Of a DNA stretch of 64,000 bases, positions 7,000-42,134 are shown piece by piece (position 1 is the stretch's first letter; the number at the start of each line of letters is the position of its first letter). Made by a program: the position numbers and the translations under genes. Under the pieces are notes generated by a model. The model did not search any database and had not been told where the DNA came from. It was given only the letters and a program-made list of their open reading frames with translations. Source of the stretch: an uncultured Bacteroidales bacterium (GTDB lineage Bacteria > Bacteroidota > Bacteroidia > Bacteroidales > CAIWKO01); assembly GCA_964626855.1 (NCBI GenBank), contig CAZVKJ010000004.1, positions 4,869 through 68,868 on the forward strand, written 5' to 3'.

Positions 7000-9366
7000 T
7001 CAAAACACATTTCTCGAATCCCGTTCCTTTTTTATTTCAATATTTTTTTCCGTTTTGGCTATGGATTTTCCTTTATTGAAACGGAAACTCACTTCAAGCA
7101 TCAGAAAGTTTTTAATGATGCCTACATCATATTTCCTCGACTCTGTGTATAAATCTGTTTTGATATAGGATCCCTGGTACTGTTCAACGCCCCAATTCAG
7201 TGGCACAAAATAAAGCAGCATCACACTCAGCCGTTGCTTGAAAAAAGGCTGCTTCAGAAATATGATCCAGAAGTCGACATCGTCTTTGTTATATCCCTGC
7301 GCCGTAATGCTTTTACGCATGTTCTTCTGGTACTGGAAACCGGTCATCGTATATTTTTTCTGGTTTTGATAAATAAAGCTGCCCAGCATCGCCCAGTCAT
7401 TTACATGGTTTGTTTTGCCTGCATAGTTAATATAGCCGCTGTTTAAGTCGGCATTTGCCTGCAGGAAAAAGACTTTGGCAATGGGAACGGAAAAACGGGC
7501 TTCAACACCGTACTTCCTGTAGTTTCCTGCGTTGCTGTATGTGTATTCAAATATGTTATCCGGACGAAGGGCGCCGGTTTCTGTAATGTAATTATTCGAA
7601 AATTGATAATATGGCTCAATCGTGATAAGCCCTCTGAGGATATTGGTCTGCAGTGAGATTTTGTGTGTTACTTCAGGCTTCAGATTGGGGTTCCCCGTAC
7701 GGATACTGTGTAAATCAATTACAGAAGAAAAAGGGTTGGTCTGGCTGATATTCGGGTAATTGCTTTCCGACCTGTACTTCACCTTAAAATCCAGAGACTT
7801 CCACGGTTGATATTTGATATCGGCATAAGGTTGAAAAATGATGTATGAATTTTTCTGCCCGCCGGCGTTTGGAGAACTTGTTTCAGCTACCCCGCCGAAT
7901 TTTATTCCGAATGTTTTGTTTTTTTGCCACGAAAAGTAAGCATAGAGTTTATTGCGGAAATCAGAATATGTAAATGGGGCGCTCATCGATTCAACAATGT
8001 ATGTACTATGAAGTTTCTGCCATGAATTTCCGTAACCGGCCTGAAGGTTTATTTTGTTTTTAAATGTATGAGCATATTCTAAAAAAAAATCTGTGGTGTT
8101 TTTGTCATCCTTTTCTTCTTCATTTCTGTTGTTGAGCAGGAGGTCTTTATATAGGTTAAAGGTTTGGCACCGGTAATTTGAGAATGTAAAATTCGTATTG
8201 ATTGAATTTTTTTCATCGGGTTTATACTGGTAAAACACAGAGCCGTATGCCGTGGAGGTATTCGATTTATTGCTGGATTCTGCAATATATTGATTGAGGA
8301 TGCCGTTGCTGCCTGTTTCCGTCACAAAATAGTTTTCGGTGGTTTTATTCAGGCTTATGGGCTGTGATGACAAGCTTCCTTCAAAGCTGATGGTCTGTTT
8401 CGGGTTGATATAGTAGTCGGCCCCCAGGGTGTAATTATGGTCAAGCCGTAAAATGTTCAGATTCATGTCATCCTTATTCAAAGGTTCCTTGGTTGTAACA
8501 AAACCGCCGGTATTGTATTCCTGCGTGATGAACGACTGCAGGTTAAAATGAGCAAAACTACTACTGTATTTGGCATACAGATTCACCTTATTATAGACAT
8601 AATTAAATGTTGCTGAAGCCCTGTTCTGGGTAAGAATGTTTCCGGCTTTATGCTCATCGGCATCCAGGGTGGTTTGATCGTAGAGGAAAAGTTCGGTGCC
8701 CTGGTAATCTTTTTTTAGGATGATGTTTATGACAGCCGAATAACCCTCCAGGGCATAACGGCCGCCCGGGTCCCTGATGATCTCGACTTTTTTCATGCGG
8801 TCGGGCGCAAGGTTTTTGACGTATTCCTGGTCTTTTTCAATGCCATCCACCAGTATGATCACCTTTGCATCATTATCAACTTTAATAGAATTATTGTAGT
8901 TGTCGTAAGAAACACCGTTGATTTTATTCAGAACATCTTTAGCGCTGGCGGCACCGGCCTTGAGCTTGTCGGTGACGATCTGCATGTCCCTGTCGAGTTG
9001 GTTTTCGCTTGAGCTTTCCTTTATCGAAACCTCGCTCAGCGTTTTTGAGGTGGGTTCAAGTTTGATTACGCCGAGAAAAACATTTTCATAAACGGGGGTG
9101 AGCGCCGTGGTGTCGGTATTAAAGCCGATAAAACTAAATACGAAGCGGTAAACACCGGGGGATAGGGGGATGTTGAAAAATCCGTTTTGGTCGGTAACGC
9201 CTCCGGTGATTAGGCTGTCTTTTTCATTTAACACGGAGATGGAACAGAACTCAAGCGTGTTCTTTGTCCGGGCATCTTTTACCTGGCCTGTAACATCCGA
9301 TTTTCCGCCTGCCATGATAAATCCGCTGTTGATCAAAAGGAGCACAAATAAAAATATACTTTTCAT
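7000..9366 (-). CDS. outer-membrane beta-barrel receptor-like protein with CarboxypepD_reg N-domain
   Basis: Start moved to the ATG at 9366 (MKSIFLFVLLLINSGFIMA signal). N-terminal GQVKDARTKNTLEFCSISV...GFFNIPLSPGVYRFVFSFIGF is a carboxypeptidase-regulatory-like fold. A plug-like VEIIRDPGGRYALEGYSAVINIILKK follows, then a long Y/N/F-rich beta-strand region ending in an aromatic residue. Confidence 0.7.
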   Translation of the reverse strand: MKSIFLFVLLLINSGFIMAGGKSDVTGQVKDARTKNTLEFCSISVLNEKDSLITGGVTDQNGFFNIPLSPGVYRFVFSFIGFNTDTTALTPVYENVFLGVIKLEPTSKTLSEVSIKESSSENQLDRDMQIVTDKLKAGAASAKDVLNKINGVSYDNYNNSIKVDNDAKVIILVDGIEKDQEYVKNLAPDRMKKVEIIRDPGGRYALEGYSAVINIILKKDYQGTELFLYDQTTLDADEHKAGNILTQNRASATFNYVYNKVNLYAKYSSSFAHFNLQSFITQEYNTGGFVTTKEPLNKDDMNLNILRLDHNYTLGADYYINPKQTISFEGSLSSQPISLNKTTENYFVTETGSNGILNQYIAESSNKSNTSTAYGSVFYQYKPDEKNSINTNFTFSNYRCQTFNLYKDLLLNNRNEEEKDDKNTTDFFLEYAHTFKNKINLQAGYGNSWQKLHSTYIVESMSAPFTYSDFRNKLYAYFSWQKNKTFGIKFGGVAETSSPNAGGQKNSYIIFQPYADIKYQPWKSLDFKVKYRSESNYPNISQTNPFSSVIDLHSIRTGNPNLKPEVTHKISLQTNILRGLITIEPYYQFSNNYITETGALRPDNIFEYTYSNAGNYRKYGVEARFSVPIAKVFFLQANADLNSGYINYAGKTNHVNDWAMLGSFIYQNQKKYTMTGFQYQKNMRKSITAQGYNKDDVDFWIIFLKQPFFKQRLSVMLLYFVPLNWGVEQYQGSYIKTDLYTESRKYDVGIIKNFLMLEVSFRFNKGKSIAKTEKNIEIKKERDSRNVF

Positions 9367-9629
9367 GATAAGGTTTCGTTTTTTTTTCAGATTATTGGAC
9401 ACCCGAAAAATTGAAAAGTTACAGATGGGGATTAATTTTTAGTTTGATCCCAAAAATGCTTGCTCAAATGACCTTTATGCAAGGCCGTGAACCCTCAGTG
9501 TTACTCCGGTTAATGCAAGGTGTTGAACCACAAAGCCCACGGCAGACAAAAGTACAAAAGAAGAATTTTAATGAAAAAAGGATAAATAAATTTTTATATT
9601 CATACATTATTTCGTTAATTTTGTTCTAT

Positions 9630-9719
9630 AATTACAAATACTTACCAATATTTGTAAATGTTTGTAACTTTATGTAAGCGATTTTTTAATAATTTATATG
9701 CAGAATTACAAATACTTAC
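9630..9719. repeat. two copies of AATTACAAATACTTAC, the first inside a palindrome
   Basis: The 16-mer occurs at 9630-9645 and 9704-9719. The first overlaps the palindrome TTACAAATA-n8-TATTTGTAA (9632-9657). Both copies are followed by ATGTTTG. The repeats lie 155-245 bp upstream of the operon start at 9875. Confidence 0.4.
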
Positions 9720-9874
9720 GATGTTTGATAGATAGTATGGACGATAAGAACTAAAGTAACAATAACAGTATTACTGCAACACAAAAGTTAGCAGCAAGTT
9801 TAGAAAAAAGAGAAGTGCGAAGTAAAAATTGATTTATTAGGAAACAGATTATTTAAAACAAAAATACACAAATC

Positions 9875-12800
9875 ATGTTTGAGAAAATCATAGAAAGACA
9901 ATTTAGAATTGATTTATTCGAAAAGGACAAAAATCCAAGAGTAACTTTTACTAAATTGAAATACTCTTATAACTATTTTTTAGCGTGTATTGTCGTTGAT
10001 AATTTCTCAACAAACAACTCATTTGACAAGTGGATTTATGGAGAAGCATTACCAGCAGACATAAAAAGTATTGGTGAAACAAATATAATTGTTAATAATA
10101 ATAAACTAGAAGATGAAATAAATTGGATCTTATTGAGCATTAGAAAATACAAAAATGAAATCAATAAATTTTTAACTTATAAAAAACAATTTGAAGCTAA
10201 ATTATTAACTGGAGACTATGAAAAGGCTGAAGAAATATTAAATTTGGTTGATTCTCAAATTTCAATGTCTTTATGGAGTATTGAAAATCGTTTTTTATTA
10301 ATTGAACTCAGAAAAGGGTTAAAGGAGAATACCGGTTTTCTTAATGATATTAACATTCAAAACAATAAGTCATTTATCAGATACTTAGCGCATTTTTATA
10401 GTACAAAAGCTGAAAAAGAACTTTCTGTTAATCGATATGAAGTAAATTTAGTAAAGTTTCTATTGCCTTTAATGGAAAAAGGATTCAATGCTGATTTAGA
10501 GTATTATTTTTTCAAGCTAAATCCATTTGTAAAAAATAATTACGAACATTTATCAGAAATTCTCGCATTTGAAAACTACAATTCAATAATTGATAAATAT
10601 ATATCATTAATAAGAGTCTTTCAGATTATTATTACGAATTTGACTGATACTGACAAAGAGTTGAAGGATTTTATTAGAAATAGATTATATTATTTAGATA
10701 AAAAAGTTGAAGATAATAATATAAAAATACTTAGAAGTGTAGTTGGAAATGAATTGGAAGAAATTTCTTTAAATTCAAATGACAAAAGTTATATATCAAT
10801 ATTAGACTTATATACGTCTGGTGAGTATGAAGTCTGTCAAAAAATGATTGAAACTGCACTTAATTTAGATCCATTAATTTTTGAATTCTATCCAATTTAT
10901 ATTAAATCATTATTACATCAAAAAAAAGAATTAAATTATGGTAAAAAAAATTCTTTTCAAGGTCAAATATTAGCGTCATTATTAGAATTGTATAAAAAGG
11001 AAAATAACCCTGTTGATTCTGGAATAATCTTAAAAAAGATTGCATATAATCTAAGCAATATTTCAAACATATCTTTTTCAATAACTGACATCGTAAAATC
11101 AGAAATAGAGAATGATGATTCATTTAATAAACTGTCACAGATAAACGCTTCATTTTTAAATCCACAATTATCAAAAATCCACAATAACCAAAATAAAATT
11201 CTTGATCTTCTTGCCAAAAAAACCTCAAATTCAAGCACAATCTTTTTATTGACGGCATTTTTAAAAGATACAATAAATGATATTGAATCTAAATCAAATA
11301 TTGATATAACTAGAATTAGTTATTATCAAGCTAAAAGGCATCAATTAAATGAAAACTATGATGAAGCAAGCAAAATTTGGGAAAGATTATTGGAAATTGA
11401 ACTTTTAAATTACAAAGTTGAAAAGGTACTAATAAATCTCTTCTTCTGTAAAGCAAAATTAAGCGAATTTGATTCTTGTATTAATTTGTATGTCAAATAT
11501 TATTTTAAAAATAAATATTTGGTTCAAAGATTAAATGTAGATATAGTTAAAAATGAAATTAAAAAAGCTAAATATAACAATATTATTCATTCCATAGAAC
11601 TACCATTATTTTTTTACTTAACAAATTCTGAGGGCTATGATATTCACACGGCCTATGAATGTTTTTTAATGAATAATGACTGTGAAAAAGCTTCAGAATT
11701 AATTGACAAAATAGATTCATATGATAATTATCTTATATTTTTTCTTAAAAATATATGCAATCTTGAAGTATTTAAACATTCCCCAGCAATTACAAATACA
11801 AAAAACAAATTTAATGAGCGAATCAAAATATGTCAATATTTAATTAAAGTTGATCCTCAAAATAAGGAAGAATATAAAGAAGAAGAAACTCTTTTATCAA
11901 ACAGATTAATAATTCAAAAAGGATTACAAGAAATTGATGAAAGTAAAATTTATGTTAATCAGGATAGTATAATTTTAAATGAACTAAAAGATTTAAAATC
12001 TATATTTAATAGATACGTTTCTATTGCTCAACTATCTGATGAAAAAGGAATTGCATTTATAAATTTGGGCTCTGAAAGGATGTATAATGTCTCATTGCAA
12101 GAAGAAACAACAATGGATGTTGAGTTTTCAAAAGATCCTCAATATGATATATTTAAAGAAATATTTTATGAAATAAGGGATAAGTTTTTATATAGTAAAT
12201 ATGGATTGAAATTAAACCTAAGTACAAGAATTCGCCATGGTGTTTTAGAAGGTGAAATTCGTTCTGAATTTGTTTTGTTAAACTTGATTACAGAGAAGGA
12301 AAATGCATCAAATGTTTACAAACAAAATAAACAGTTAAGAGCGATTATGCAATCATATAATGATGAACAAACCTGTATAATTTTTGATAAATTGATTTCT
12401 GAATTTTCTGAACAAATTGATAGTTTAATTTATGACGAAATTCTTGCTAAATACCTCCTTATTAAAACTGAAAAAGAAAACCCAGATGGTTGGTTAGATT
12501 ACAAGTATGATGAAGTTGAATTACAAGTGCTTTACTCTTTAATTTACAAAAACATAACAAGTTACAATGAGTTTATAGATTCTATTTTTAAAGACCTTTG
12601 GAACAGAACAAATAAGAATCTAATAGAGATTCAAATTAAACTTAAAAATGAATTCAGAGATAAATTTTACGATGTTATATATGTTTTTGAAAATAAACTA
12701 CAACAATCTAACGTAGTACTCCCAGATGAATTACTTACAAATTTGACAGTTATAAAAACTAAAGTCGAAAATAAATTATCTAAAATTGCAAGTTGGTTTA

Positions 12801-13291
12801 CTATTACTGATTCACAAATATCTGATTTTGATCTTAATAAAATAGTAGAAGTTTGTTGTGAATCTCTTCACAATCATTATACATCTAAAAACTTAATTTT
12901 AGACAAAAAAATTGAATATCACGGACTTATTAAGGGTCAGTATTTTACTCATTTAGTCTATTTGCTAAGAATATTTTTTCAAAATATTCTTGATTATTGT
13001 GAAGAAGACAATGTAAACATATTCCTTAGTATTCGAGAATCTAAAAATGTACTAAATATAAAAATTGAAAACAAGCTAAAAGATAACGAAGACATACAGG
13101 TACTAAAAGAAAAAATAAAAATAGAAGATGATATAATAAAATCTCAATTAGATAAAAAGTCCGGATTATACAAAGCTTTGAATATAGTTAGAACTAGCTT
13201 TGAAGATGATAAAAATGAATTATTCATTGACATTATAGAAAATAAGTTTTGTGTGTCAGTTGATTTAAATCTTAATAAGATATTAGCATGA
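9875..13291 (+). CDS. dtcA: Detocs DtcA-like sensor: large helical-repeat protein with C-terminal GHKL/histidine-kinase-like ATPase
   Basis: 1138-aa ORF, very AT-rich. About 770 aa of K/E/N/L-rich helical, TPR-like sequence with no TM segment. C-terminal FDLNKIVEVCCESL...LLRIFFQNILDYCEE is N-box-like, and KKSGLYKALNIVR is G2-box-like. The only His between roughly aa 770 and 1000 is H788, in LSTRIRHGVLEGE (12236-12238). The stop overlaps the next start (ATGA at 13288-13291). Confidence 0.65.
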   Translation: MFEKIIERQFRIDLFEKDKNPRVTFTKLKYSYNYFLACIVVDNFSTNNSFDKWIYGEALPADIKSIGETNIIVNNNKLEDEINWILLSIRKYKNEINKFLTYKKQFEAKLLTGDYEKAEEILNLVDSQISMSLWSIENRFLLIELRKGLKENTGFLNDINIQNNKSFIRYLAHFYSTKAEKELSVNRYEVNLVKFLLPLMEKGFNADLEYYFFKLNPFVKNNYEHLSEILAFENYNSIIDKYISLIRVFQIIITNLTDTDKELKDFIRNRLYYLDKKVEDNNIKILRSVVGNELEEISLNSNDKSYISILDLYTSGEYEVCQKMIETALNLDPLIFEFYPIYIKSLLHQKKELNYGKKNSFQGQILASLLELYKKENNPVDSGIILKKIAYNLSNISNISFSITDIVKSEIENDDSFNKLSQINASFLNPQLSKIHNNQNKILDLLAKKTSNSSTIFLLTAFLKDTINDIESKSNIDITRISYYQAKRHQLNENYDEASKIWERLLEIELLNYKVEKVLINLFFCKAKLSEFDSCINLYVKYYFKNKYLVQRLNVDIVKNEIKKAKYNNIIHSIELPLFFYLTNSEGYDIHTAYECFLMNNDCEKASELIDKIDSYDNYLIFFLKNICNLEVFKHSPAITNTKNKFNERIKICQYLIKVDPQNKEEYKEEETLLSNRLIIQKGLQEIDESKIYVNQDSIILNELKDLKSIFNRYVSIAQLSDEKGIAFINLGSERMYNVSLQEETTMDVEFSKDPQYDIFKEIFYEIRDKFLYSKYGLKLNLSTRIRHGVLEGEIRSEFVLLNLITEKENASNVYKQNKQLRAIMQSYNDEQTCIIFDKLISEFSEQIDSLIYDEILAKYLLIKTEKENPDGWLDYKYDEVELQVLYSLIYKNITSYNEFIDSIFKDLWNRTNKNLIEIQIKLKNEFRDKFYDVIYVFENKLQQSNVVLPDELLTNLTVIKTKVENKLSKIASWFTITDSQISDFDLNKIVEVCCESLHNHYTSKNLILDKKIEYHGLIKGQYFTHLVYLLRIFFQNILDYCEEDNVNIFLSIRESKNVLNIKIENKLKDNEDIQVLKEKIKIEDDIIKSQLDKKSGLYKALNIVRTSFEDDKNELFIDIIENKFCVSVDLNLNKILA

Positions 13292-13722
13292 AAGTTTTAT
13301 TAATTGAAGATACTGATCTTAAAAAAGAACAGATAGCTGCTTTTGTTTCGGAAGAATATCCATCTATTTATTTAGAACTGAGAAAGTCATATAATTCTGG
13401 ACTAAGAGAAATAATTAAGAATCAAGATTACTCATTAATACTTCTAGATATGAGTTTGCCTAATTATGACATCGCTCCAGGTGAAACAGGTGGTGATTTT
13501 GAAAGTATGGCTGGTAGTTTTCTTTTACAAGAGATGTATAGAAGAGACATCAATATAAATGTAGCAATTGTTACAATGTATAAAAACTATACAGATGAAG
13601 AATTTAATTCGGGCTTAAAAGATAGCTTCTCTAATTATTTAGGAGTTGTATATTTTAATTTGAATAAACCTGATAGTTGGAAAAAAGAATTAAGAACGAT
13701 TTTTAAATCTATAAATCTATGA
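13288..13722 (+). CDS. dtcB: Detocs DtcB-like stand-alone receiver (REC) domain protein
   Basis: 144-aa ORF. CheY-like MKVLLIEDTD acidic pocket and putative phospho-acceptor D54 in LILLDMSLP (13447-13449). No output domain. ATGA overlaps on both sides. Confidence 0.75.
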   Translation: MKVLLIEDTDLKKEQIAAFVSEEYPSIYLELRKSYNSGLREIIKNQDYSLILLDMSLPNYDIAPGETGGDFESMAGSFLLQEMYRRDININVAIVTMYKNYTDEEFNSGLKDSFSNYLGVVYFNLNKPDSWKKELRTIFKSINL

Positions 13723-14945
13723 TTAACATAATAATAGTCGAAGACAACAACGACAAATTAGTAAAAATTCAAGATCTGATAAAAACTGAAATTGATATTC
13801 CTGAACAGAATGTATCAACAGCAAAGAATGTCAAAGAAGCAAAGATCATTATGCGTAATACAACTTTTGATTTAATGATTCTCGATTTAGTACTCCCATT
13901 AGATGAAGATGATAATGAAAGTCCCGAAAATGGGATTTCATTTTTAAAAACTATACAAACAAACCCTACTATAAATCCTCCAATTCATATTGTTGGTTTG
14001 ACTAGTTTTACGGATTTAATAGAACAATATGCAGCAGAATTTACGAAGTACTTATGGTATTTAATTGAATATAAAGGTGATGAGTCAGATTGGAAGGAAA
14101 AACTTAAAGAAATATTTTTCCATTTGATTAAAGTTAGAAAAGAGTTCTTAAATCCAATTAATATTAAATACGATTTTGATATTGCTGTTATTTGTGCTTT
14201 ACATAATCCCGAACTTGTTCAAATATTGAAGATTCCAGCTAACTGGGAAAAATATTCAATACAAAACGATGCAACTCAATATTTTATTGGAATCTTTGAA
14301 AGAGGTGCAAAAAGATTAAAAGTAGTTTGTGCTTCCCCTCCTCAAATGGGCATGGTTGCATCTGCAACTTTATCTATGAAGATGATTAATTCTTTTAAAC
14401 CCAAATATATTGCCATGACAGGAATCGCTGCGGGTTATTCTGGAAATGATTTAGGATATGGGGATATCTTAATTGCAGATCAATCTTACGACGGAACGAG
14501 TGGTAAGATAATAACTCTTGAGAATCTCGATAAAAGTTTTTCCCCTAATCCTACCCCAATTCCTATAGATTCTGATTTAAAAGAAAAATTAAGAGGATTT
14601 GAGAATCATGAAATTCTATCAAAGATAAAAAGAAAATTTAACGGGAATTTACCTAACACTGAACTTAAAATTAAAGTTGGACCTTTAGTATCAGTTCCTT
14701 TTGTTATACAAAACGAAATTGAGTTTAAAAGCTTCAGGGACAATCAAAGAAAACTAATTGGTTTAGAAATGGAAGCATTTGGTATTTTTTATAGTGCAAA
14801 TAATGCTCCCAATCCCAAGCCCAAACCAATTGTAATTAAATCTGTATGTGATTTTGGTGACAGTAAGAAGGATGATAACTATCAGATTTATGCAGCATTT
14901 ACAAGTGCACAATTTTTCTATGAATTTGCATTGAACGAATTATAA
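13719..14945 (+). CDS. dtcC: Detocs DtcC-like effector: receiver domain fused to PNP/MTA-nucleosidase-fold domain
   Basis: 408-aa ORF. N-terminal REC domain (IIIVEDNND; acceptor D56 in LMILDLVLP, 13884-13886). The C-terminal ~260 aa carry nucleoside phosphorylase/nucleosidase hallmarks: PPQMGMVASATLSMKMI..YIAMTGIAAGY, GLEMEAFG (E350-M351-E352 at 14766-14774) and KSVCDFGD. Confidence 0.8.
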   Translation: MINIIIVEDNNDKLVKIQDLIKTEIDIPEQNVSTAKNVKEAKIIMRNTTFDLMILDLVLPLDEDDNESPENGISFLKTIQTNPTINPPIHIVGLTSFTDLIEQYAAEFTKYLWYLIEYKGDESDWKEKLKEIFFHLIKVRKEFLNPINIKYDFDIAVICALHNPELVQILKIPANWEKYSIQNDATQYFIGIFERGAKRLKVVCASPPQMGMVASATLSMKMINSFKPKYIAMTGIAAGYSGNDLGYGDILIADQSYDGTSGKIITLENLDKSFSPNPTPIPIDSDLKEKLRGFENHEILSKIKRKFNGNLPNTELKIKVGPLVSVPFVIQNEIEFKSFRDNQRKLIGLEMEAFGIFYSANNAPNPKPKPIVIKSVCDFGDSKKDDNYQIYAAFTSAQFFYEFALNEL

Positions 14946-15078: not shown

Positions 15079-15591
15079 ATGAATAGAATCAGGATAATAT
15101 TATTTTTCCTTGCATCATTGACAGTCTATTCTTGTAACAGGCCACCCGACCTGACAGAGGATGAAATCAATAATATATTAAATGGGATATTGGCCATCGA
15201 CAGCAATATTTGTATTGGACAATTATGCTGGAAATATAATGATTTAGCATGGGAAGACGAGTACAAAAAAGTATTTACTTCGTCAGACATCAGATTTATC
15301 AATAGACAGAAACGCTTGTTCAGTAACCTGAGAATCAAACCGAATATCTTGCAATGTTATTGGCCGACAAAGAAAAAATTCGACTATTTTGATATAGTAG
15401 ACACAAATTGGACAAAGGGGGGTGTTCATCATTTCTCTTTCCCTTTAATATCAGTAGACAGAAATAAGGTTATCCTGCAAACAGTATTTGACTGCAACAT
15501 GCCACTTTGTAGTTGGAGTGACGTAAGCTTATATGTCAGAAAAAATGGAAAATGGAAATTGGAGAAAACGTTTCAGTCTTGGCTAAGTTGA
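15079..15591 (+). CDS. hypothetical lipoprotein
   Basis: 170-aa ORF with a lipobox-like signal, MNRIRIILFFLASLTVYSC. Confidence 0.5.
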   Translation: MNRIRIILFFLASLTVYSCNRPPDLTEDEINNILNGILAIDSNICIGQLCWKYNDLAWEDEYKKVFTSSDIRFINRQKRLFSNLRIKPNILQCYWPTKKKFDYFDIVDTNWTKGGVHHFSFPLISVDRNKVILQTVFDCNMPLCSWSDVSLYVRKNGKWKLEKTFQSWLS

Positions 15592-16082: not shown

Positions 16083-19000
16083 ATGAAAAAAGTATTGTTC
16101 AGCGGATTTTGCATAATTATTTTTTCTTTTTGTCTTTGGCTCATTTCCTTTGACCGTGTTGTTGCCCAATGCAGCATTGAGGCATGTCCTGATATTACTT
16201 TTTGCCCGGGAGCATCTGCACAACTGGTGGCTTCAGGAGGGGTAAGTCCGGGCAGCTATACCTGGTCGCCATCAACAGGATTGAACAGCACTACAATTTA
16301 TAATCCTGTCGCAAGCCCGTTAGTCACAACTACCTATTATGTCACAGGCAACGGCACATTAGGCAACGTAATTATCAACGGCGATTTTTCACAGGGAAAC
16401 ACAGGCTTTTCCTGTAATTATAATTATAATTCTAATCTTGTTCCCGAAGGAAATTATTATGTCGGTACAAATCCTCATACCTTTCATGGCGGATTTGTCA
16501 ATTTTTATGATCATACCAGCGGATCAGGAAATATGATGATTGTTAATGGTGCGGGTGTGCCTAATACCAATGTGTGGTGCCAGACGGTGCCTGTTACACC
16601 AAATACGGATTATGATTTTGCGACATGGGCCTGCAATGTAAGTAATTCGGGAAGTCCGGCACTGTTGCAATTTTCAATTAATGGCCAACCACTTGGGTCA
16701 ATATTTTCCGTGAATGCTGTGACCTGCATCTGGAATCAGTTTTTTGCAATTTGGAATTCGGGAAGTAATACTACTGCTACCATTTGCATTGTTAATCAGA
16801 ATACAACACTGGTGGGCAATGACTTTGCCCTTGACGATATATTGTTTGCACCGGTATGCTATGGAATAGATTCGGTTACAGTCTTTGTTGACCAGGTAAA
16901 CATTTCGGCAAGTCCTGCCAATCCGGCTATTTGTCCGGGGCACTCTGTAACGCTTTCTGCTTCGGGTGCAAGCACCTATACATGGATTCCGGGGAATACG
17001 CCCGGCTCCACTGTTGCCGGAGCTCAGATCACCGTTTCTCCTGTTACAACTACCATCTACACGATAACGGGTACAGATGCTATTGGGTGTACCGGCTCAA
17101 CAAGCGTTACCGTCAATGTCGGTTATCCGGTTATATCAGGCGTTCTTTCTGTTTGTACAAATTCATCGACTCAGCTTGCCGGAACTGGCCAGCCGGCTGT
17201 TTCAGGCGCCTGGGTATCCTCAAACACCGGTGTTGCTTCAGTAAATAATTCAGGTATGGCCATTGGTGTTTCAGCCGGTACAAGTATTATAACCTATACC
17301 GACATTGCGGGTTGTACGGCAACGGCAACGCTGACTGTTAACACAACACCTTTAGTAGTAGCTCTTTCAAATGTTTTTGTGTGCGACAGCGGCACGGTCG
17401 CCGCGACAAATTTTACCAGCAATCCACCCGGAGGAGTATTTTCGTGGACAAATTCCAATACAACTATCGGGCTGGGAGCGGGGGGTACGGGAAACATCCC
17501 CTCGTTTACGGCAATAAATAACACATCCTCACCAGCAAACGTAATAATTACAGTTGTTTCTACCCTGAACAATTGTACAGGCCCTCCTTCTGCCTATACC
17601 ATTACCGTATACCCATCGCCTAACGTCAATGCCCCGGTAGATATTGATGTTTGCGATGGTACCCTGATGTTGGCATCAACATTTAACGGCCCGCTACCGG
17701 GGACAACATTATCATGGACAAACAGTAATACGGCTGTCGGGCTTCCGGCAGGAGGTTCCGGCGACGTGCCGCAATTTAATGCAACGAATGCCGGTACAAC
17801 ACCTGTATTGGCCACCATCGTTGTAATTCCCACTGGAAATGTTTGCACAACTGCCCCTGTTACATACCACCTCACAGTTAATCCCATACCTTCTGTCACC
17901 ATGCCTGCCGATACGTCAGTCTGTCATGGTGCAATTGTCGGCGCTTCAATATATACAGGTACTGTGGCTGGAACAACATTTACATGGACAAATTCAAATG
18001 CGTCAGTAGGCCTTGCAGCCAGCGGCATTGGAAATGTGCCTTCATTTACAGCCATAAATACGGGAAATATCCCTGTTGTGGCCAACATCACAGTTACTCC
18101 TGCCGCCAACAATTGCACCGGAATACCTTCCGTATATAGCATCATTGTGAGTCCGGCACCCCTGATAACCTTTTCTTCCTTGCCGCAACTTTGTATTTCT
18201 TCGCCACCCTTGTCGCTTACACACGCGATACCGGCTGGAGGTATTTATTCTGGCGCCGGCGTCACCGGGAATATCTTTGATCCTTCGGTTGCAGGCATTG
18301 GAATGCATACCATATCATACACTTATACGGATACAAATAGCGGTTGTAGCAATACAGGCACAACACAGATTGTGGTCACTGATGGGTTATCAATTTCGGT
18401 ATCGCCTGAAAATCCTTTTATTTGTGAGGGCAACAGTATTATACTGCATGCTTCGGGAGCATCATCGTTCACATGGCAACCTGTTACTGGTTTATCTTCC
18501 AGCCTGGGCGATCAGGTTATTGCATCACCTGCAATGACCACTGTTTATACTGTTCAGGGCAGTAATCCTGATGGTTGTGCAGGTTCAGCTACAGTGGCCG
18601 TTGGAATATATAATGTGCCTGTATTGGCTGTTACGTCTTTTCCCAAAGAAGGATGCAGCCCGCTAAAGGTGAATTTTGGCTATGTGCCTATTGGGCCCAT
18701 CGATACCAACACCATGTATTGGAATTTCGGTGATCTTTCTTCATCAGAAAATTCATCTGTTAGAGCATTTCCTGCGCATACGTTTATCAACCAGGGGGAA
18801 TATGCTGTTTATCTGGGCGCACATACAACGGAAGGATGCCCTGTATCGTGCACAGATACCGTGCTTGCTTTTCCGGTTCCGGTGGCTGATTTCTATTATA
18901 ATCCCCCGGTAGCCAGTTTATACGATCCCAAAATAAATTTTATTGACCTGTCTGCAGACGGCACTTCCTGGTTATGGGATTTTGGTGATCCTGCTTCATT

Positions 19001-19415
19001 TAATAGTAACAGCTCAAACCTGCAGAATCCTGTTCATACTTTCAGCGATTCTGGTTCATTCCTGGTGCAGCTCATTGTATACAGTGATAATAGCTGTTCC
19101 GATACTATAGAAAAGCCCATCAGGATTTATCCCGAGATCATCATTTTTATCCCAAATGCGTTCACTCCAAATCACGACGGGCGCAACGAAACGTTCAGAC
19201 CAATAATCACTGGAATTGATAAAGAAGGTTACCTGTTTTATATTTTTGACCGGTGGGGGAAAATGGAGTTTAATACCAGTGATCCGCAGGAAGGCTGGGA
19301 CGGCAAGAATAGTGGCCGGGAATGCGAGATGGGAGTATATGTATACATGGTTGCATATCGTAGTATGACGGGTAAAGAATTTAAAGAAAGAGGTATTGTA
19401 AATTTGATCAGATAA
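16083..19415 (+). CDS. large T9SS type B cargo / adhesin-like protein with repeated Ig/PKD-like domains
   Basis: 1110-aa ORF with an N-terminal signal/TM segment. Three ~90-aa repeats (aa ~430-700) share the pattern C..G....A..F...P..G..F.WTNSN...GL.A.G.G..P.F.A.N. PKD-like segments (WNFGD, WDFGD) are present. The C-terminal IPNAFTPNHDGRNETF...GWDGK...GVYVY...VNLIR is the gliding-motility C-terminal domain. Confidence 0.8.
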   Translation: MKKVLFSGFCIIIFSFCLWLISFDRVVAQCSIEACPDITFCPGASAQLVASGGVSPGSYTWSPSTGLNSTTIYNPVASPLVTTTYYVTGNGTLGNVIINGDFSQGNTGFSCNYNYNSNLVPEGNYYVGTNPHTFHGGFVNFYDHTSGSGNMMIVNGAGVPNTNVWCQTVPVTPNTDYDFATWACNVSNSGSPALLQFSINGQPLGSIFSVNAVTCIWNQFFAIWNSGSNTTATICIVNQNTTLVGNDFALDDILFAPVCYGIDSVTVFVDQVNISASPANPAICPGHSVTLSASGASTYTWIPGNTPGSTVAGAQITVSPVTTTIYTITGTDAIGCTGSTSVTVNVGYPVISGVLSVCTNSSTQLAGTGQPAVSGAWVSSNTGVASVNNSGMAIGVSAGTSIITYTDIAGCTATATLTVNTTPLVVALSNVFVCDSGTVAATNFTSNPPGGVFSWTNSNTTIGLGAGGTGNIPSFTAINNTSSPANVIITVVSTLNNCTGPPSAYTITVYPSPNVNAPVDIDVCDGTLMLASTFNGPLPGTTLSWTNSNTAVGLPAGGSGDVPQFNATNAGTTPVLATIVVIPTGNVCTTAPVTYHLTVNPIPSVTMPADTSVCHGAIVGASIYTGTVAGTTFTWTNSNASVGLAASGIGNVPSFTAINTGNIPVVANITVTPAANNCTGIPSVYSIIVSPAPLITFSSLPQLCISSPPLSLTHAIPAGGIYSGAGVTGNIFDPSVAGIGMHTISYTYTDTNSGCSNTGTTQIVVTDGLSISVSPENPFICEGNSIILHASGASSFTWQPVTGLSSSLGDQVIASPAMTTVYTVQGSNPDGCAGSATVAVGIYNVPVLAVTSFPKEGCSPLKVNFGYVPIGPIDTNTMYWNFGDLSSSENSSVRAFPAHTFINQGEYAVYLGAHTTEGCPVSCTDTVLAFPVPVADFYYNPPVASLYDPKINFIDLSADGTSWLWDFGDPASFNSNSSNLQNPVHTFSDSGSFLVQLIVYSDNSCSDTIEKPIRIYPEIIIFIPNAFTPNHDGRNETFRPIITGIDKEGYLFYIFDRWGKMEFNTSDPQEGWDGKNSGRECEMGVYVYMVAYRSMTGKEFKERGIVNLIR

Positions 19416-27610: not shown

Positions 27611-29539
27611 CTATTTGCAAATTTCTTTGATGACCTGTCCGGCTGTCGGGTTACCCAGCTCAAATGATTTGTGCCAGTCTTCGCATGCGCCTGTGGTATC
27701 GCTTACATTGAGGCGGGTGAGTCCCCTGTTGAACAGTACCACATTATCCCGGGGATTAAATTTTAGTGCGGTGCTGTAATCGTCGATGGCGCCATGATAA
27801 TCCTTCATCATGGCCCTGATATTGGCTCTGTTGCTGAATGCTTCGCCATCATTGGGCTCGAGGCTGATGGCCTTGTTTACGTCGTTGAGGGCGCCATTGA
27901 GGTTGCCGATGGTTGCTTTCAAAACGCCACGGTTATTATATGCTTTTTGAAGTTCTGGGTTGAGAGCAATGGCTTTATTATAGTCTTTGAGAGCGGCAGC
28001 CGTGTCTCTCAGCCCGTCGAAAGCCATGCCCCGGTTGTTAAAAGCTTCGGCAACGGTATCGTTTAATTTAATGGAAAGGTTCAGATCCTGCAGGGCGGCC
28101 TGGTAATCCTTAAACTCAATGAGAACATGGCCGCGGTTGGTGAGGCACTGGTCAAACAACGGATATAGTTGCAGCGTTTTATTGTAATCCTGCAATGCTC
28201 CCTGGTAATCTTTTTGCTCATTCTTATAATTTCCACGCATCCAGTATGGGAGGTAATTTTCCGGATATTTTTTTATAATATCTGTAAACAGCGTATTTCC
28301 GTCTTTCCATACTTTGGTTCTTTCCCATGTTAGAAAAGACATGATCATCACAAACACGATGCTTAGAAAAACGGCATTTTTTTTAACAGATTCTTTCTGG
28401 ATACCCGAAATCCACTGGCCGGCGATAAAAAACAAACCGATATAGGAAACATAGCTGTATCGCTCGGCAGTGATGGCATTACCCACTGAAATAATCTGCA
28501 GCATGATGGAGATTACGACCAGGAAAAATGAAACGCCAAATATTTTCTCACGCAACAGCTTTGTCTTTCTGATGGTCAGCCAGATCAACAAAAGGAGGAG
28601 CGGCAGTGAAGCATAATAATACCAGGGTAAAAAGGCACTTTTTACGTCGGGGTAATAGTGCATGGCAGAAAGCTTGAAAGGCGCAATGACCTTTACAACA
28701 TAGAAGACTATCGTATAAGTGAACATGAAGATCCGGTCAACGATGCTGTAATAAGAAATATCCTTCATGGCTCCCTGCTGCGAAAATAAAGCCAGGACGC
28801 CGAATAACAGCGCCGGTAATACAAAGGGAATTTTTTCAATGACAATCTTTGCATTGATTTTTCTTCTTTTATAAATATCGATAGCGATCATGATCACAGG
28901 AAGTGTAACGGCAGCTGATTTCGATAACAGTGAAAGTATGAAAAGAAACAGGCTGATCCAATAGAACTTTTTCTTTTGATCCGCTTCAAGATATTTTGAA
29001 TATAATAGCAGCGCTCCAAGATAAAACACCGTATACAGCACATCCTTGCGCTCCGAAATCCAGGCCACCGATTCTACGTGCATGGGATGCAATGCAAATA
29101 ATGCCGAAACAAGCAATGCTGAAAAACGTTGGCCGCTTAATTTCTCAATCAGCTTGTAAACCAGAAATGTATTTATTAAATGAAGTATTAAATTAAAAAG
29201 GTGGAATGGAAACGGATTTTGCCCGTAAATATGCTTTTCAAAGAAAAAAGTAAGCGTAGTTAAGGGATGGTAATTGCCAACATAAAAGGTCGAAAAAATA
29301 TCCTTTACCGAGTTGAAGTTAAATTCCTTGATATATGGGTTTTTAACGATGTAATCAGTATCATCAAGGCTGGCAAAACCATTAAACAGAGAACCTGCAT
29401 ATGCAATGGCCGTAAGTACAATGATGGCATAAATCGTCCAGGGTGGAAACTGCAATGATTTTTTTTGCACTGGAGTATTTTTAGAAATCTTGTGATTCTG
29501 CGGCTTTGCAGGTATTTTTTTCTCAGGCTTGTTAGCCAT
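27611..29539 (-). CDS. TMTC-like GT-C membrane glycosyltransferase fused to TPR repeats (paralog 1 of 5)
   Basis: 642 aa. K-rich cytoplasmic tail and ~10 TM segments. Loop-1 LDD motif (ASLDDTDY). DUF1736/PMT_2-like signature HPMHVESVAWISERKDVLY. About 6 C-terminal TPRs ending in CEDWHKSFELGNPTAGQVIKEICK. Confidence 0.7.
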   Translation of the reverse strand: MANKPEKKIPAKPQNHKISKNTPVQKKSLQFPPWTIYAIIVLTAIAYAGSLFNGFASLDDTDYIVKNPYIKEFNFNSVKDIFSTFYVGNYHPLTTLTFFFEKHIYGQNPFPFHLFNLILHLINTFLVYKLIEKLSGQRFSALLVSALFALHPMHVESVAWISERKDVLYTVFYLGALLLYSKYLEADQKKKFYWISLFLFILSLLSKSAAVTLPVIMIAIDIYKRRKINAKIVIEKIPFVLPALLFGVLALFSQQGAMKDISYYSIVDRIFMFTYTIVFYVVKVIAPFKLSAMHYYPDVKSAFLPWYYYASLPLLLLLIWLTIRKTKLLREKIFGVSFFLVVISIMLQIISVGNAITAERYSYVSYIGLFFIAGQWISGIQKESVKKNAVFLSIVFVMIMSFLTWERTKVWKDGNTLFTDIIKKYPENYLPYWMRGNYKNEQKDYQGALQDYNKTLQLYPLFDQCLTNRGHVLIEFKDYQAALQDLNLSIKLNDTVAEAFNNRGMAFDGLRDTAAALKDYNKAIALNPELQKAYNNRGVLKATIGNLNGALNDVNKAISLEPNDGEAFSNRANIRAMMKDYHGAIDDYSTALKFNPRDNVVLFNRGLTRLNVSDTTGACEDWHKSFELGNPTAGQVIKEICK

Positions 29540-29568
29540 AATATCTATTTATTTAAAAATTCATCACA

Positions 29569-29576
29569 CAAATGTA
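29569..29576 (-). promoter_or_regulatory. candidate -7 promoter box (TACATTTG)
   Basis: Matches TAnnTTTG on the minus strand, 30 nt upstream of the start at 29539. Confidence 0.4.
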
Positions 29577-29673
29577 CAAAAACAATAATCATCTTCTTAT
29601 ATGTTCCCCGTGACATCAGGGCGGCAATCAAACTGATGAAATTCAGATTTGTGACTGTATTCAAAGTGCGATA

Positions 29674-31596
29674 TTATTTATTACAAATCTGTTTTACAAA
29701 ATCAGCCGCCGGTGCGTATCCGAGATCAAGGGCTTTATGAAAGTCTTCGCAGGCACCGTCTATATCTTTAAGGTTAAACTTGGTATTAGCACGGTTGAAG
29801 TAAGCTATCTTGTCTTTTGGATCGATGGTTAAAACTTTATTGCAATCTTCGATAGCTCCATTATAATCCTTGAGCAGGTTCTTTATTCCGGCCCTGTTGC
29901 GGTATGCTTCGCTGTCATTAGGATCCAGGCTGATGGCTTTATTCATATCCTCAAGTGCACCCTGGGTATTTCCCATACTGAATTTCAGCACCGCCCGGTT
30001 GGTGTATCCTTTCGATAACTTTGGATTAAGTTTAAGGGCTTTGTTAAAGTCGCGCAGCCCGGCAGCCGAATCGCCCAACTGGGCATAGGCCATGCCGCGG
30101 TCGCTGTATGTTTCGGCAACCGTAGAGTCTATCTGTATTGACTGAGTCAGGTCACGCAGTGCATTCTGATAATCGTTAAAACCTTTGAGAAGCACCTTCC
30201 CGCGCGCTGCAAGGCTTGGCGCATATTTCTGGAACAACTGTATCGACTTGTTATAGTCGTTCAGTGCATTCTGGTAATCGTTACGCTTATAATAAATATT
30301 GCCACGCATCCAGTAAGCAGGATATCTGTCAGGATATTTTTTTACCACATCATTGAAAAGTACTACACCGTCTTTCCATACACCGATACGGTCCCAGGCA
30401 ACAACAGAATAAACGATGATCAGAAACCAATACCCGAACAAGATCGTTTTTTGAAGGGATTTTTTCTGAATTCCCGCTATCCATTGTCCTGCAATATAAA
30501 ACAACCCGAAGTAGGCGACGTAGGAGTAGCGTTCCGAAGTGATGGTATCGCCGACAGAAATAAGCTGAAGCATGATGGAGATCGCGATGAGAAAGAAGAA
30601 CATCCCGAAAAGCAATTCCCGCCTGAGCGCCGAACGCCTTATGACAAGCCATGCCACCACCAGCAGGAAGGGCACCGAGGCATAATAATACCATGGCAGC
30701 ATATCGCTGTTGGGGTAATAATGCATAACAGACATATGGAAAGGGGCAATAAGCTTGACGATATAAAATGAAACAGAATAGGATAGCATGAATATCCTGT
30801 CAATGAACGAAAATGAGGTGGATACTTCTTTCATCGCGTCCTGTTGTGAGAGAATGGCCAGTATGCCGAAAAGCACGGAAAGGGCCAGGAATGGTACTTT
30901 TTCGAGGAACATCCTTACATTGAGTTTTCGGCTTTTATAGAGGTCAAACACGATGAGGATTACCGGAAGGGTGACGGATGCCGATTTTGATAAAAGAGAG
31001 AGTATAAAAAGTATCAGGCAAATGAAGTAGTATTTGATTTTATAATCTTTCAGGTACAACAGGTATACAATCAATGCCGCTAAGTAAAACATGGTATAAA
31101 GCACATCCTTGAGTTCTGCCGTCCAGGCCACGGATTCCACGTGCATGGGATGAATGGCAAACAGCAGTGAAACGATCAGTGCCGTAAGGCTTTTTCCGCT
31201 TAATTTCTCGGCAAGTTTGTACACAAGAAAAATGTTTACCAGGTGAAACAACACATTTATGATATGATAGGGCATCGGATTAAAGCCGAACAGGCTGTAT
31301 TCGATCATGTAGGTCAGTAATGTCAGCGGAAAATAGTTGCAGTCATAAAATGAAGAAAAGATAATCTTTATAGTATCAAAGCTTAAATTCTTGCTGTAAG
31401 GATTATTAAATAGATAGATATCGTCATCAAGGTTGACAAACCCATTCAAAAATGACCGCAAATATATTATTACTGTAAAAGCCAGAACGGCATAAATGGC
31501 CCAGTGAGGTACCTGTAATGTGTTACTCTGCAGGCTGCTCTTTTTTTGAGGCTTTTGCTGTACGGTGTTTTTTTTATTCTGTTGCTTTACGGCCAT
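29674..31596 (-). CDS. TMTC-like GT-C glycosyltransferase-TPR fusion (paralog 2 of 5)
   Basis: 640 aa. VNLDDDIY, HPMHVESVAWTAELKDVLY, C-terminal TPRs, and a CEDFHKALDLGYAPAADFVKQICNK tail. Confidence 0.7.
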   Translation of the reverse strand: MAVKQQNKKNTVQQKPQKKSSLQSNTLQVPHWAIYAVLAFTVIIYLRSFLNGFVNLDDDIYLFNNPYSKNLSFDTIKIIFSSFYDCNYFPLTLLTYMIEYSLFGFNPMPYHIINVLFHLVNIFLVYKLAEKLSGKSLTALIVSLLFAIHPMHVESVAWTAELKDVLYTMFYLAALIVYLLYLKDYKIKYYFICLILFILSLLSKSASVTLPVILIVFDLYKSRKLNVRMFLEKVPFLALSVLFGILAILSQQDAMKEVSTSFSFIDRIFMLSYSVSFYIVKLIAPFHMSVMHYYPNSDMLPWYYYASVPFLLVVAWLVIRRSALRRELLFGMFFFLIAISIMLQLISVGDTITSERYSYVAYFGLFYIAGQWIAGIQKKSLQKTILFGYWFLIIVYSVVAWDRIGVWKDGVVLFNDVVKKYPDRYPAYWMRGNIYYKRNDYQNALNDYNKSIQLFQKYAPSLAARGKVLLKGFNDYQNALRDLTQSIQIDSTVAETYSDRGMAYAQLGDSAAGLRDFNKALKLNPKLSKGYTNRAVLKFSMGNTQGALEDMNKAISLDPNDSEAYRNRAGIKNLLKDYNGAIEDCNKVLTIDPKDKIAYFNRANTKFNLKDIDGACEDFHKALDLGYAPAADFVKQICNK

Positions 31597-31641
31597 AACT
31601 ATGGGTTTTACATTACAAACTTTAATTGAATATTTCTGTTG

Positions 31642-33585: not shown

Positions 33586-33708
33586 TTTGGTTTTCTTTAA
33601 TCGAAAAAACTATCATTATTTAATTTATATATGCATCTTATATGTGCATCCTGATTTGTGCCAGGGATTCAAGGTGCCTTAATAAAGAAATACGATTGAG
33701 CTACATCA

Positions 33709-35649: not shown

Positions 35650-35758
35650 AGTTTATTCGATAACATTACGATGTCAACCAATAATTTATAAAGTTATAAC
35701 GATGTAAGTAAATAATTCCGGAATGCATAATACATAGATATGATTCGATCATAAATCA

Positions 35759-40208: not shown

Positions 40209-42134
40209 CTATGTATTCATGAAAAGCAAAAACTCTTCGTTGGTCTGGGTGAATTTCATTTTATCTTTGAGAAATTCCATAGCTTCCACGGGATTCATGT
40301 CGGCCAGGTGGTTTCGCAGAACCCAGATACGTTGCAGCGCTTCTTTTTCATGAAGCAGGTCGTCGCGGCGTGTGCTGGATGCTACAATATCGATAGACGG
40401 GAAAATACGTTTATTGGAAAGTTTTCGTTCGAGCTGGAGCTCCATATTGCCGGTTCCTTTAAATTCTTCGAAAATTACTTCGTCCATTTTGGAGCCGGTT
40501 TCGGTAAGCGCTGTTGCAATGATGGTAAGGGAGCCTCCGTTTTCGATCTGTCGTGCAGCGCCGAAAAACTTCTTTGGTTTTTGCAGTGCTGAGGCTTCAA
40601 CACCTCCGGATAAAACTTTTCCGGATGCCGGTGCCACGGTGTTGTATGCACGAGCCAGGCGTGTGATGGAATCGAGTAATATCATAACATCATGTCCGCA
40701 TTCAACAAGGCGTTTTGCTTTTTCAAGAACAATATTGGCGATTTTTACATGCCTGTCGGCGGGTTCATCAAAGGTAGATGCAATAACTTCAGCGTTGACA
40801 CTGCGCTGCATATCGGTTACTTCTTCCGGGCGTTCATCAACAAGCAGAATGATCAGATAAACTTCCGGATGATTATAAGCAACGGCATTTGCAATTTCCT
40901 TCAGGATCATGGTTTTACCTGTTTTAGGTTGAGCGACGATGAGGCCGCGCTGGCCTTTACCTATAGGCGTAAAAAGGTCAATGATGCGGGAGGTGATGGT
41001 CATTTGCGGATGACCTGTAAGTTTTAGTTTCTTTTCTGGGAATAGCGGTGTGAGATGGTCAAAGTTCACGCGGTCACGCACCTGCTCAGAGCTAAGGCCA
41101 TTGATATGTTCCACTTTGATAAGCGGAAAATACTTTTCGCCTTCTTTAGGCGGACGAATTTTGCCCCTGACAGTATCGCCGGTTTTTAGTCCGAACAGCT
41201 TGATCTGCGATTGTGAAACATATATATCATCTGGTGAATTCAGGTAATTATAATCTGATGAGCGCAGGAAGCCATAACCGTCGGGCATAATTTCGAGTAC
41301 GCCCTCACAGGATACAATGCCTTCGAAGTCGAAGGAATATTCCGGTTGTTTTTCCCGCTGCGGGCGGTTTTTAAATTGGTTATCCCGCTGATAACGTTCC
41401 TGGTCCATAGGTTTGGACTCTTCAGTGGCTGTTGCCTCATCTTTAACGACGTTTTCCGGTACTGATTTATTCTCTGTATCTGCAGGAGTTTCAGGAGTGT
41501 TTTCTTTTTCCGCGGCAACGGCTTCCTGTTTTTCATCATAAGGATGCTGCGGAATCCGGGCAACGGGTTCTTCGTCATCAAAGGAAGGTAGCAGAAAATC
41601 GAATTTTTTTGCTTCTTCCTGAAAGAGTTCTTTTTTGTAGACCTTGTCTGGATGTGATTCCGGCTTTTCCGTCTGGGGTTCCTGTACTTTTTGTTCTTCG
41701 GTTTTAAAAAGAATTTTAGGTTGTTGTTCCCGGATTTTATGTTCTCTTTTATGTTCCTGTTGTTCAGGTTTTTCTTTTGAAGCGGGTTTGTCGAATCCTT
41801 TATTTTTGGGGAAATTGTTTTGGTCTTTTTGTTTTTTTTCAAAAACCTTTACCGGTTCAGCCGGTTTAGGTTGCTCGCCAGTAGCTTGTTGTTGTTTCAT
41901 TTCCGGGTTTTCAATGCGAGTACGCCTTTGGGCGATCTTTCTCCGGTTTTTTCCGTTTTCTTCATGGCTTTTTTCTACCGGCTTGTTTATATCTGGTTTA
42001 ATAGCCTGGATGTCAAGAATTTTGTGTATGAGGTCCTTTTTGCGCAGGTCTTCGTAATCGGGAACATTAAGTTTTTCGGCAATTTCCTGCAATTCAGGAA
42101 TAGTCATACCATTCAGGTCAATAATATTATACAT
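40209..42134 (-). CDS. rho: transcription termination factor Rho with long low-complexity N-terminal insertion
   Basis: 641 aa. N-terminal helix bundle ([31 protein letters not shown]). A ~220-aa K/E/P/Q-rich insertion at aa ~45-268. CSD-like RNA-binding region ([14 protein letters not shown]). Walker [17 protein letters not shown]-terminal RIFPSIDI. Confidence 0.92.

Follow-up and report, generated by a model that had tools for sequence, protein, structure and literature searches.

The open reading frame (ORF) at 9875-13291 of the window (the whole 64,000-nucleotide stretch of contig CAZVKJ010000004.1, from an uncultured Bacteroidales bacterium, that was analysed here) very probably encodes DtcA, the sensor kinase of a horizontally acquired Detocs anti-phage system, with a relay from H788 to a receiver as its mechanism. 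What doubt we retain about this reading bears mostly on the status of H788 as acceptor and on ATP binding by the sub-clade that carries KKSG in its G2 box. Detocs systems combine a DtcA annotated as 'TPRs + Histidine kinase' (TPR, tetratricopeptide repeat) with a lone receiver, DtcB, and a receiver-PNP fusion, DtcC (Rousset et al. 2023, bioRxiv 10.1101/2023.01.24.525353). Every trait of such systems that can be looked for in a sequence is present in the window: three adjacent, co-oriented genes encode a sensor kinase, a receiver and a receiver-effector; DtcA joins N-terminal TPRs to a C-terminal histidine-kinase module and carries, in H788, the equivalent of H645 of the Vibrio alginolyticus DtcA; DtcB has its acceptor Asp (D54), and DtcC has both a receiver Asp (D56) and the catalytic Asp of the PNP domain (D378). 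With all of these in place, the locus is, as far as sequence can tell, a further member of the Detocs family already described, and the cassette is now placed in a Bacteroidota-type genome. Detocs has been known since 2023, and the kinase core of DtcA is still poorly described.

The functional evidence comes from V. alginolyticus, where defence is lost upon the substitution H645A in DtcA and upon D58A or D353A in DtcC. DtcB D53A is toxic there in a manner that requires the PNP domain, and the PNP domain of DtcC cleaves ATP and dATP; the Vibrio and Enterobacter systems are the only two for which phage protection by way of an ATP/dATP nucleosidase has been demonstrated (bioRxiv 10.1101/2023.01.24.525353). 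H788 can be identified as the counterpart of H645 because the published H645A primers (Table S7 of the same work, bioRxiv 10.1101/2023.01.24.525353), once joined and translated, read GIASYLGR-RIR(A)GTFEG, so that they encode the motif of the family and carry the mutated codon where H788 stands. A bridge to the Vibrio protein was provided by a search with its N-terminal 399 amino acids (aa), which retrieved from the database, though not the Vibrio protein, a relative, P0192 (28 % identity over 95 % of the query), containing YGIASYLGRRIRHGTLKG. When P0192 is aligned to the DtcA module with hhalign (94.8 % probability, E 5e-8), its RIRHG falls on H788, and its DDSRIYVD on DESKIYVN. The partner proteins also align with those of V. 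alginolyticus, DtcC at 27 % identity over its full length (E 5e-28) and DtcB at 23 % in a 100-residue local alignment. The locus resembles the Detocs of V. alginolyticus UCD-32C in its three-gene operon, in the TPRs plus histidine kinase layout, in the YL[SG]xRIRHG motif that surrounds the essential residue (H645 in Vibrio and H788 in the window), in the acceptor Asp of DtcB and of DtcC and in the catalytic Asp of the PNP domain. It differs in the length of DtcA, which is shorter in Vibrio (at most ~980 aa, judged from operon coordinates), and in its host, which is Bacteroidota-like here and a gamma-proteobacterium there.

The C-terminal 499 residues of DtcA, used in an exhaustive profile search, found 2625 cluster representatives at E<=1e-3 and 1852 at E<=1e-30; among the 150 matches listed, most are about 1100-1200 aa long and some are shorter and probably partial. 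Conservation was counted in a hidden Markov model (HMM) alignment of 189 family members drawn from 50 %-identity clusters. H788, R787 and R796 are each present in 189/189 members, G789 in 188 and S783 in 186, and further positions of the module are nearly as constant (Y815 and D849 in 188, W974 and F975 in 187). The same invariant set emerges from a MAFFT alignment of 111 full-length members with 22-58 % identity to the query, and the conservation of the H788 module is, by these alignments, more than would be expected by chance. Around the His, the family reads F-h-x-S-x-[YF]-G-L-D-x-Y-L-S-x-R-I-R-H-G-[TV]-L-x-G-x-h-R.

A first-pass annotation of this DNA, made from the sequence alone and without naming Detocs, had singled out H788 as the sole His of its region and had placed it some 240 aa before FFQNILDY. 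DtcA contains 13 His (residues 173, 225, 348, 436, 489, 572, 591, 635, 788, 999, 1001, 1016 and 1026), so that residues 636 to 998 in fact hold H788 and no other, and 249 aa separate it from N1037. Equally accurate was its statement that the region ahead of the ATPase-like part has no H-box and no His, since the stretch NEFRDKF...SKIASWF (925-975) contains none and the helical hairpin at 897-973 has no conserved one. The annotation had also asked for an alignment of homologs, and this reveals no residue competing with H788: among the 189 members the only conserved His of residues 640-1137 are H788 and position 1041 of the N-box, the latter being His in 129 members and Tyr (Y1041) in the window's DtcA.

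The second line of evidence is the predicted fold. AlphaFold2 (AF2), run with family alignments, gave a mean pLDDT of 82.5 for the full-length protein and of 82.0, with a pTM of 0.71, for residues 640-1138, and in residues 987-1138 the order of strands and helices is that of the catalytic ATP-binding (CA) domain of kinases. Foldseek searches of the Protein Data Bank (PDB) with the 640-1138 model return, with probability 1.00 and E values of about 1e-5 to 1e-4, histidine kinases that include a bacteriophytochrome kinase, RetS, CpxA, ZraS, AdeS and HK853 (220-270 columns) and GacS (341 columns), and also PDK2, PDK4 and their relatives over about 400 columns (PDK2 with probability 1.00); the full-length model finds DesK, ChpT and the CA domain of VanS (TMt 0.68, root-mean-square deviation 5.1 Å, 151 columns). 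In sequence, the profile of the 111-member family matches the CA domain of PhoQ (E 8e-4), and a CA-only profile (E 0.01) places 'lrilleNiikhs' on 'MGNVLDNACKYC', N-box on N-box, the DtcA N-box falling on 'VLDNACKY' of PhoQ. The GHKL fold that had been named as a check on the kinase assignment is thus recovered, through the Foldseek matches to structures combining a dimerisation and histidine phosphotransfer (DHp) domain with a CA domain and through the weak PhoQ match. Because this fold is present, because H788 is the conserved His and because it sits in the RIRHG motif of Vibrio H645, the earlier description of a strongly diverged kinase with a long distance between His and ATPase domain stands; of its two alternatives, a long DHp and a different phosphotransfer chemistry, either may apply.

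The position of H788 within this fold is unusual. The DHp+CA structures are matched over about 220-260 aligned columns against the 152 residues of the CA domain, and these aligned lengths suggest that the hairpin at 897-973 is the counterpart of the DHp, so that H788 would lie ~110 residues upstream of it. The segment with the His is predicted to form helices at 755-773, 778-787, 790-801, 819-826, 831-860 and 880-891, with H788 at the junction of the second and third. Helices 778-860 might be packed on the hairpin as an enlarged bundle, as the PDK-like matches may suggest, or they might constitute a separate unit. Pfam searches at E<=1 gave no HisKA, HisKA_2, HisKA_3, HWE_HK, H-kinase_dim or Hpt match in 30 diverse members, and a profile made from residues 750-985 of 30 diverse members found nothing relevant in the PDB, only coiled-coil noise. 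Two other readings of the motifs were considered and set aside. The hairpin motif LWxRTExNL (908-916) could be taken for a decayed H-box (SHELRTPL with His replaced by Leu), but its register after 'RT' does not fit and the 30 members have no HisKA match at E<=1. Resemblances of the H788 motif to the HEPN Rx4-6H motif, to the 'RHG' of histidine phosphatases (PGM, SixA) and to an NDK-like 'RxIxHG' were deemed coincidental, the segment being predicted as all-helical and matching no such profile.

H788 is predicted to be the phospho-acceptor because it is invariant and because the H645A mutant of Vibrio no longer confers defence. Alternatively, DtcA could be a true kinase in which the part of H788 is catalytic or structural: with R787 and R796 it might, for instance, hold the gamma-phosphate in place, and transfer to the receiver Asp would be direct or by way of another residue. 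We consider this improbable, even if it would suit the residue that follows the His, a Gly in place of the acidic general base (Glu or Asp) of HisKA, the two invariant Arg that flank it, its location outside the hairpin abutting the CA domain, and the presence among the structural matches of PDK2, a Ser kinase with a helical bundle followed by GHKL; the published evidence, moreover, is genetic only. On the other hand, no other His or candidate acceptor is conserved in the module, the operon encodes two receivers with intact acceptor Asp, and the H645A, D58A and D53A phenotypes fit a His-to-Asp relay.

In such a relay, the N-terminal TPR-like solenoid would detect an infection cue and the C-terminal GHKL domain would bind a nucleotide triphosphate and phosphorylate H788, a step suggested by the invariance of the residue and by Vibrio H645A. 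The phosphoryl group would then be passed to D56 of DtcC, switching on a PNP domain that would cleave ATP and dATP to adenine and ribose-5'-triphosphate and so abort the infection; for Vibrio this step rests on genetics and enzymology, and here it is presumed by analogy. D54 of DtcB may serve as a phosphate sink against leaky signalling and autoimmunity, as has been proposed in the literature from the toxicity of D53A. The residues now mapped for mutation are H788, N1037 and N1066 of DtcA, D54 of DtcB, and D56 and D378 of DtcC. The literature searched yielded neither biochemistry nor structures bearing on DtcA autophosphorylation, and DtcA, being soluble and well predicted, is therefore a reasonable subject for studying how defence kinases are wired; it could show how a kinase uses ATP for signalling when the effector it controls breaks ATP down.

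The first-pass annotation had described the G1 and G2 boxes of DtcA as degenerate, and its reading of the letters holds: the G1 equivalent, IKIENKL, lacks DxGxG, and the G2-like loop reads DKKSGLYKA. Residue 1066 (13070-13072), at the end of the strand predicted at 1059-1067 and with its register set by a PhoQ alignment that ends just before 'ED', is Asn in 181/189 family members and Ser in six. Relative to the canonical GxGxG, the DKKSG loop of the window's DtcA retains only S1096, G1097 and K1100, and the family at large reads EGG[ST]G; positions 1094 and 1095 (13154-13159) are Gly in 122 and 108 of the 189 members, respectively, and Lys in the window's DtcA. The window's protein and its close relatives share D-K-[KRQS]-S-G at this point, two glycines of the ATP-lid loop having been lost in the sub-clade. 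These Lys, the query's own Pfam match to a GHKL domain (only E 0.012) and the very low GC content (22-27 %), which could reflect drift, might be taken as marks of a decayed or pseudo-kinase that does not bind ATP, in an inactive cassette with G2 KKSG and no G1 Asp. This is very unlikely: KKSG, KRSG and KQSG are common to a whole sub-clade of full-length homologs with 54-81 % identity, 38 of 38 close homologs have N1037, G1097, K1100 and H788, with N1066 retained by at least 90 %, the three ORFs are intact and translationally coupled, and the G1 Asn is the rule of the family (181/189) rather than a lesion of the window's copy. The G1 Asp of GHKL ATPases contacts the adenine (N6), and the Asn that the DtcA family has there makes the choice of nucleotide by these kinases a question of interest; a discussion of the Asp-to-Asn replacement was not found in the literature searched.

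Several points weigh against the reading of DtcA as an H788-dependent kinase. The H645A phenotype establishes that the residue is essential and is not proof of phosphorylation, and measurements of autophosphorylation or phosphotransfer on any DtcA are absent from the literature searched. The support drawn from the AF2 models is that of secondary structure, pLDDT and overall fold. ATP binding is assumed, because the G1 Asp is an Asn and, in the sub-clade of the window, Lys replaces two G2 glycines; HATPase_c_5 is matched in 10/40 and HATPase_c in 4/40 of the members scanned, all below the curated Pfam thresholds. Finally, the N-terminal 399 aa of the Vibrio DtcA have no detectable similarity to the N-terminus of the family (hhalign probability 0.3). 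The sensor halves therefore diverge far more than the kinase halves, and the sensed cue may differ. A single G-x-Y-x-x-A turn is all that the Vibrio N-terminus and the solenoid of the family have in common.

DtcA was compared with established kinase classes. With class I kinases (HK853, PhoQ, CpxA, RetS) it shares a Bergerat CA domain after a two-helix hairpin, the N-box Asn, a G2-like S/T-G loop and receiver partners. It differs from them in that its hairpin has no H-box, the His being found ~110 aa upstream of the hairpin and 249 aa ahead of the N-box Asn, in its RHG motif where they have H-[ED], in the Asn that stands for the G1 Asp, and in lacking a transmembrane (TM) or periplasmic sensor and any Pfam HisKA-type match. 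In EnvZ, PhoQ and HK853 the distance from His to N-box is roughly 105-115 residues. Of the canonical HisKA features, DtcA has the N-box Asn and lacks both the H-box on the hairpin and the DxGxG of G1, and its G2 loop agrees with GxGxG in part. The likeness to CheA (class II) is one of layout only, in that the dimerisation hairpin ahead of the ATPase domain does not carry the acceptor His; DtcA has no Hpt, H-kinase_dim or CheW-like match in Pfam, and its His segment adjoins the hairpin with no P2-like domain between them. Mitochondrial PDK/BCK kinases are matched by Foldseek over ~400 columns of the 499-residue model (640-1138), which is consistent with a helical bundle followed by GHKL, but the TM-scores are 0.2-0.3, the deviation is large and there is no sequence similarity; PDKs, besides, are Ser kinases without receiver partners.

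The Pfam scan of the query at E<=1 gave no HisKA and no HATPase domain, a weak TPR match being the only one, and all 40 close homologs carry the tag PF27260, a family absent from the Pfam copy searched. By its sequence, DtcA is predicted to act like a histidine kinase and yet lies outside every curated HisKA and HPt model of that Pfam copy, with an Asn at the adenine-reading site of G1. The placement of its His segment outside these families, ~110 aa before a His-less hairpin, is not spelled out in the literature searched. We suggest tentatively, and with more doubt than conviction, that the DtcA kinases, which number at least 2600 clusters at 50 % identity, may be a class of their own among histidine kinases, with an Arg-flanked RHG at a helix junction, upstream of or packed onto a His-less DHp-like hairpin, no adjacent acidic base and a G1 Asn. 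If so, their geometry of autophosphorylation, and possibly their nucleotide preference, would be unlike those of HisKA, HisKA_3, HWE and CheA. The atypical traits themselves (the 249-aa gap between His and N-box, the Gly after the His, the missing HisKA signature and the G1 Asn) are, in the alignments, family-wide and not peculiar to the window's copy.

The genomic setting of related loci provides a further line of evidence. When one genome per species was scanned for the motif LS[TA]RIRHG[VT][LFI], 141 loci were confirmed, of which 80 were kept for locus counts; these are mostly from Bacteroidota, with some from Proteobacteria, Firmicutes, Verrucomicrobiota and Cyanobacteria. A DtcB homolog directly follows DtcA in 78 of the 80, the remaining two ending at the DtcA match. 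The DtcC receiver is also present in 73 loci, 39 of them with a PNP domain and 34 with a different C-terminal part that has no tblastn match to the PNP half; in these 34, DtcA and DtcB are kept and the effector is swapped, in agreement with the effector modularity reported for Detocs (bioRxiv 10.1101/2023.01.24.525353). A kinase accompanied by receiver domains is also the layout of a housekeeping two-component regulator of gene expression, here with an unusual cytoplasmic sensor, yet such a role is scarcely conceivable given that neither receiver protein has a DNA-binding output, that the output is a PNP nucleosidase of a defence clade, that effectors are exchanged among related loci (39 PNP, 34 other) around a constant DtcA and DtcB, and that the cassette is a low-GC island. 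The three Detocs genes stand out sharply in this respect, with 22-30 % GC over about 9600-14600, the left flank having 43-46 % and the DNA beyond 16000 having 42-44 %, and because of this difference from flanks of 42-46 % the cassette looks horizontally acquired.

The genes of the cassette are tightly arranged. DtcA is 1138 aa long from an ATG start, and its Met1 is retained in at least 90 % of 38 homologs; the stop of dtcA overlaps the start of dtcB (13288), and dtcB overlaps dtcC at 13719, in both cases as ATGA. In DtcC, Pfam finds Response_reg and PNP_UDP_1 (E 1e-11). As had been noticed from the sequence, DtcA has no TM segment, its best Kyte-Doolittle mean over 19 residues being 1.28 against a usual threshold of ~1.6. 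The ~770 aa that were initially taken for a single helical repeat region are indeed helical, but they do not form one repeat array: the solenoid extends to ~640 and is followed by a hairpin (642-717) and a linker (720-753). The 111-member profile matches consensus TPR proteins at E 2e-15, and Foldseek with the full-length model finds the TPR solenoids of IFT-A, SKI3, Ctr9 and APC/C subunits; the N-terminal TPR-like solenoid is presumed to be the sensor, which is consistent with the published annotation. Between the solenoid and the His segment, E648, R649, E670 and the DESKIYVN block (688-695), which together span about 11816-11960, are near-invariant. All features are listed in Table 1.

Table 1. 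Genes, domains, motifs and key residues of the Detocs cassette, in window coordinates.
Feature	Position	Strand	Description
dtcA	9875..13291	+	1138-aa soluble TPR + histidine-kinase-like sensor; PADLOC PDC-M60A, E 1e-75
DtcA aa 1-640	9875..11794	+	All-alpha TPR-like solenoid; AF2 pLDDT mostly 85-97
DtcA aa 642-717	11798..12025	+	Conserved helical hairpin (E648, R649, E670; DESKIYVN), from AF2 and conservation
DtcA aa 720-753	12032..12133	+	Variable linker; pLDDT <50 in both models
DtcA aa 755-891	12137..12547	+	Helical segment with candidate acceptor His, from AF2 secondary structure
Motif S783-T-R-I-R-H788-G-V-L-E-G-E-I-R796	12221..12262	+	Family form YLSxRIRHG[TV]LxGxhR
H788 codon CAT	12236-12238	+	cgc-cat-ggt; predicted phospho-acceptor, counterpart of H645 in V. 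alginolyticus DtcA
DtcA aa 897-973	12563..12793	+	DHp-like hairpin (helices 897-944 and 951-973) directly before the ATPase domain; without conserved His
DtcA aa 987-1138	12833..13288	+	Catalytic ATP-binding (Bergerat/GHKL) domain; AF2 alpha/beta sandwich
N-box LLRIFFQN(1037)ILDY	12962..12997	+	Family hhxNhxKH; N1037 in 187/187 ungapped members (187/189 overall)
G1 equivalent IKIEN(1066)KL	13058..13078	+	Asn for the adenine-binding Asp, without Gly; no DxGxG
G2-like DKKS(1096)G(1097)LYK(1100)A	13151..13177	+	Family EGG[ST]G[FLY]xK; G1097 and K1100 each in 186/186 ungapped members (186/189)
dtcB	13288..13722	+	144-aa stand-alone receiver; PDC-M60B, E 9e-28; Pfam Response_reg
dtcB D54 codon	13447-13449	+	ILLDMSLP aligned with IILDMSLP; equals Vibrio DtcB D53
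dtcC	13719..14945	+	408-aa receiver + PNP_UDP effector; PDC-M60C, E 1e-108
dtcC D56 codon	13884-13886	+	Aligned with Vibrio DtcC D58
dtcC D378 codon	14850-14852	+	Aligned with catalytic D353 of Vibrio DtcC

A scan for sigma-70 promoters gave sites no more numerous than in shuffled sequence. Downstream of dtcC, a 170-aa ORF (15079-15591) with a lipoprotein-like N-terminus (MNRIRIILFFLASLTVYSC), an intermediate GC content of 34-38 % and no family match may mark the edge of the island. The island is bordered on the left by a gene for a CarboxypepD_reg and outer-membrane (OMP) beta-barrel protein (7000-9402, minus strand) and on the right by one for a 1110-aa PKD/CHU_C protein secreted by the T9SS (16083-19415, plus strand); both are ordinary surface genes of Bacteroidota, and no further defence genes are adjacent. 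The T9SS sorting domains and the beta-barrel encoded beside the island indicate a host of Bacteroidota type. Farther along the window, six ORFs in tandem, much alike in length (640-647 aa), occupy 27611-37684 and 40209-42134 on the minus strand, the run being interrupted by a gene for an aldehyde:ferredoxin oxidoreductase (37907-40060). The ORF at 27611-29539, the only one of the six that was scanned, has strong C-terminal TPR repeats (TPR_1, E 7e-30).

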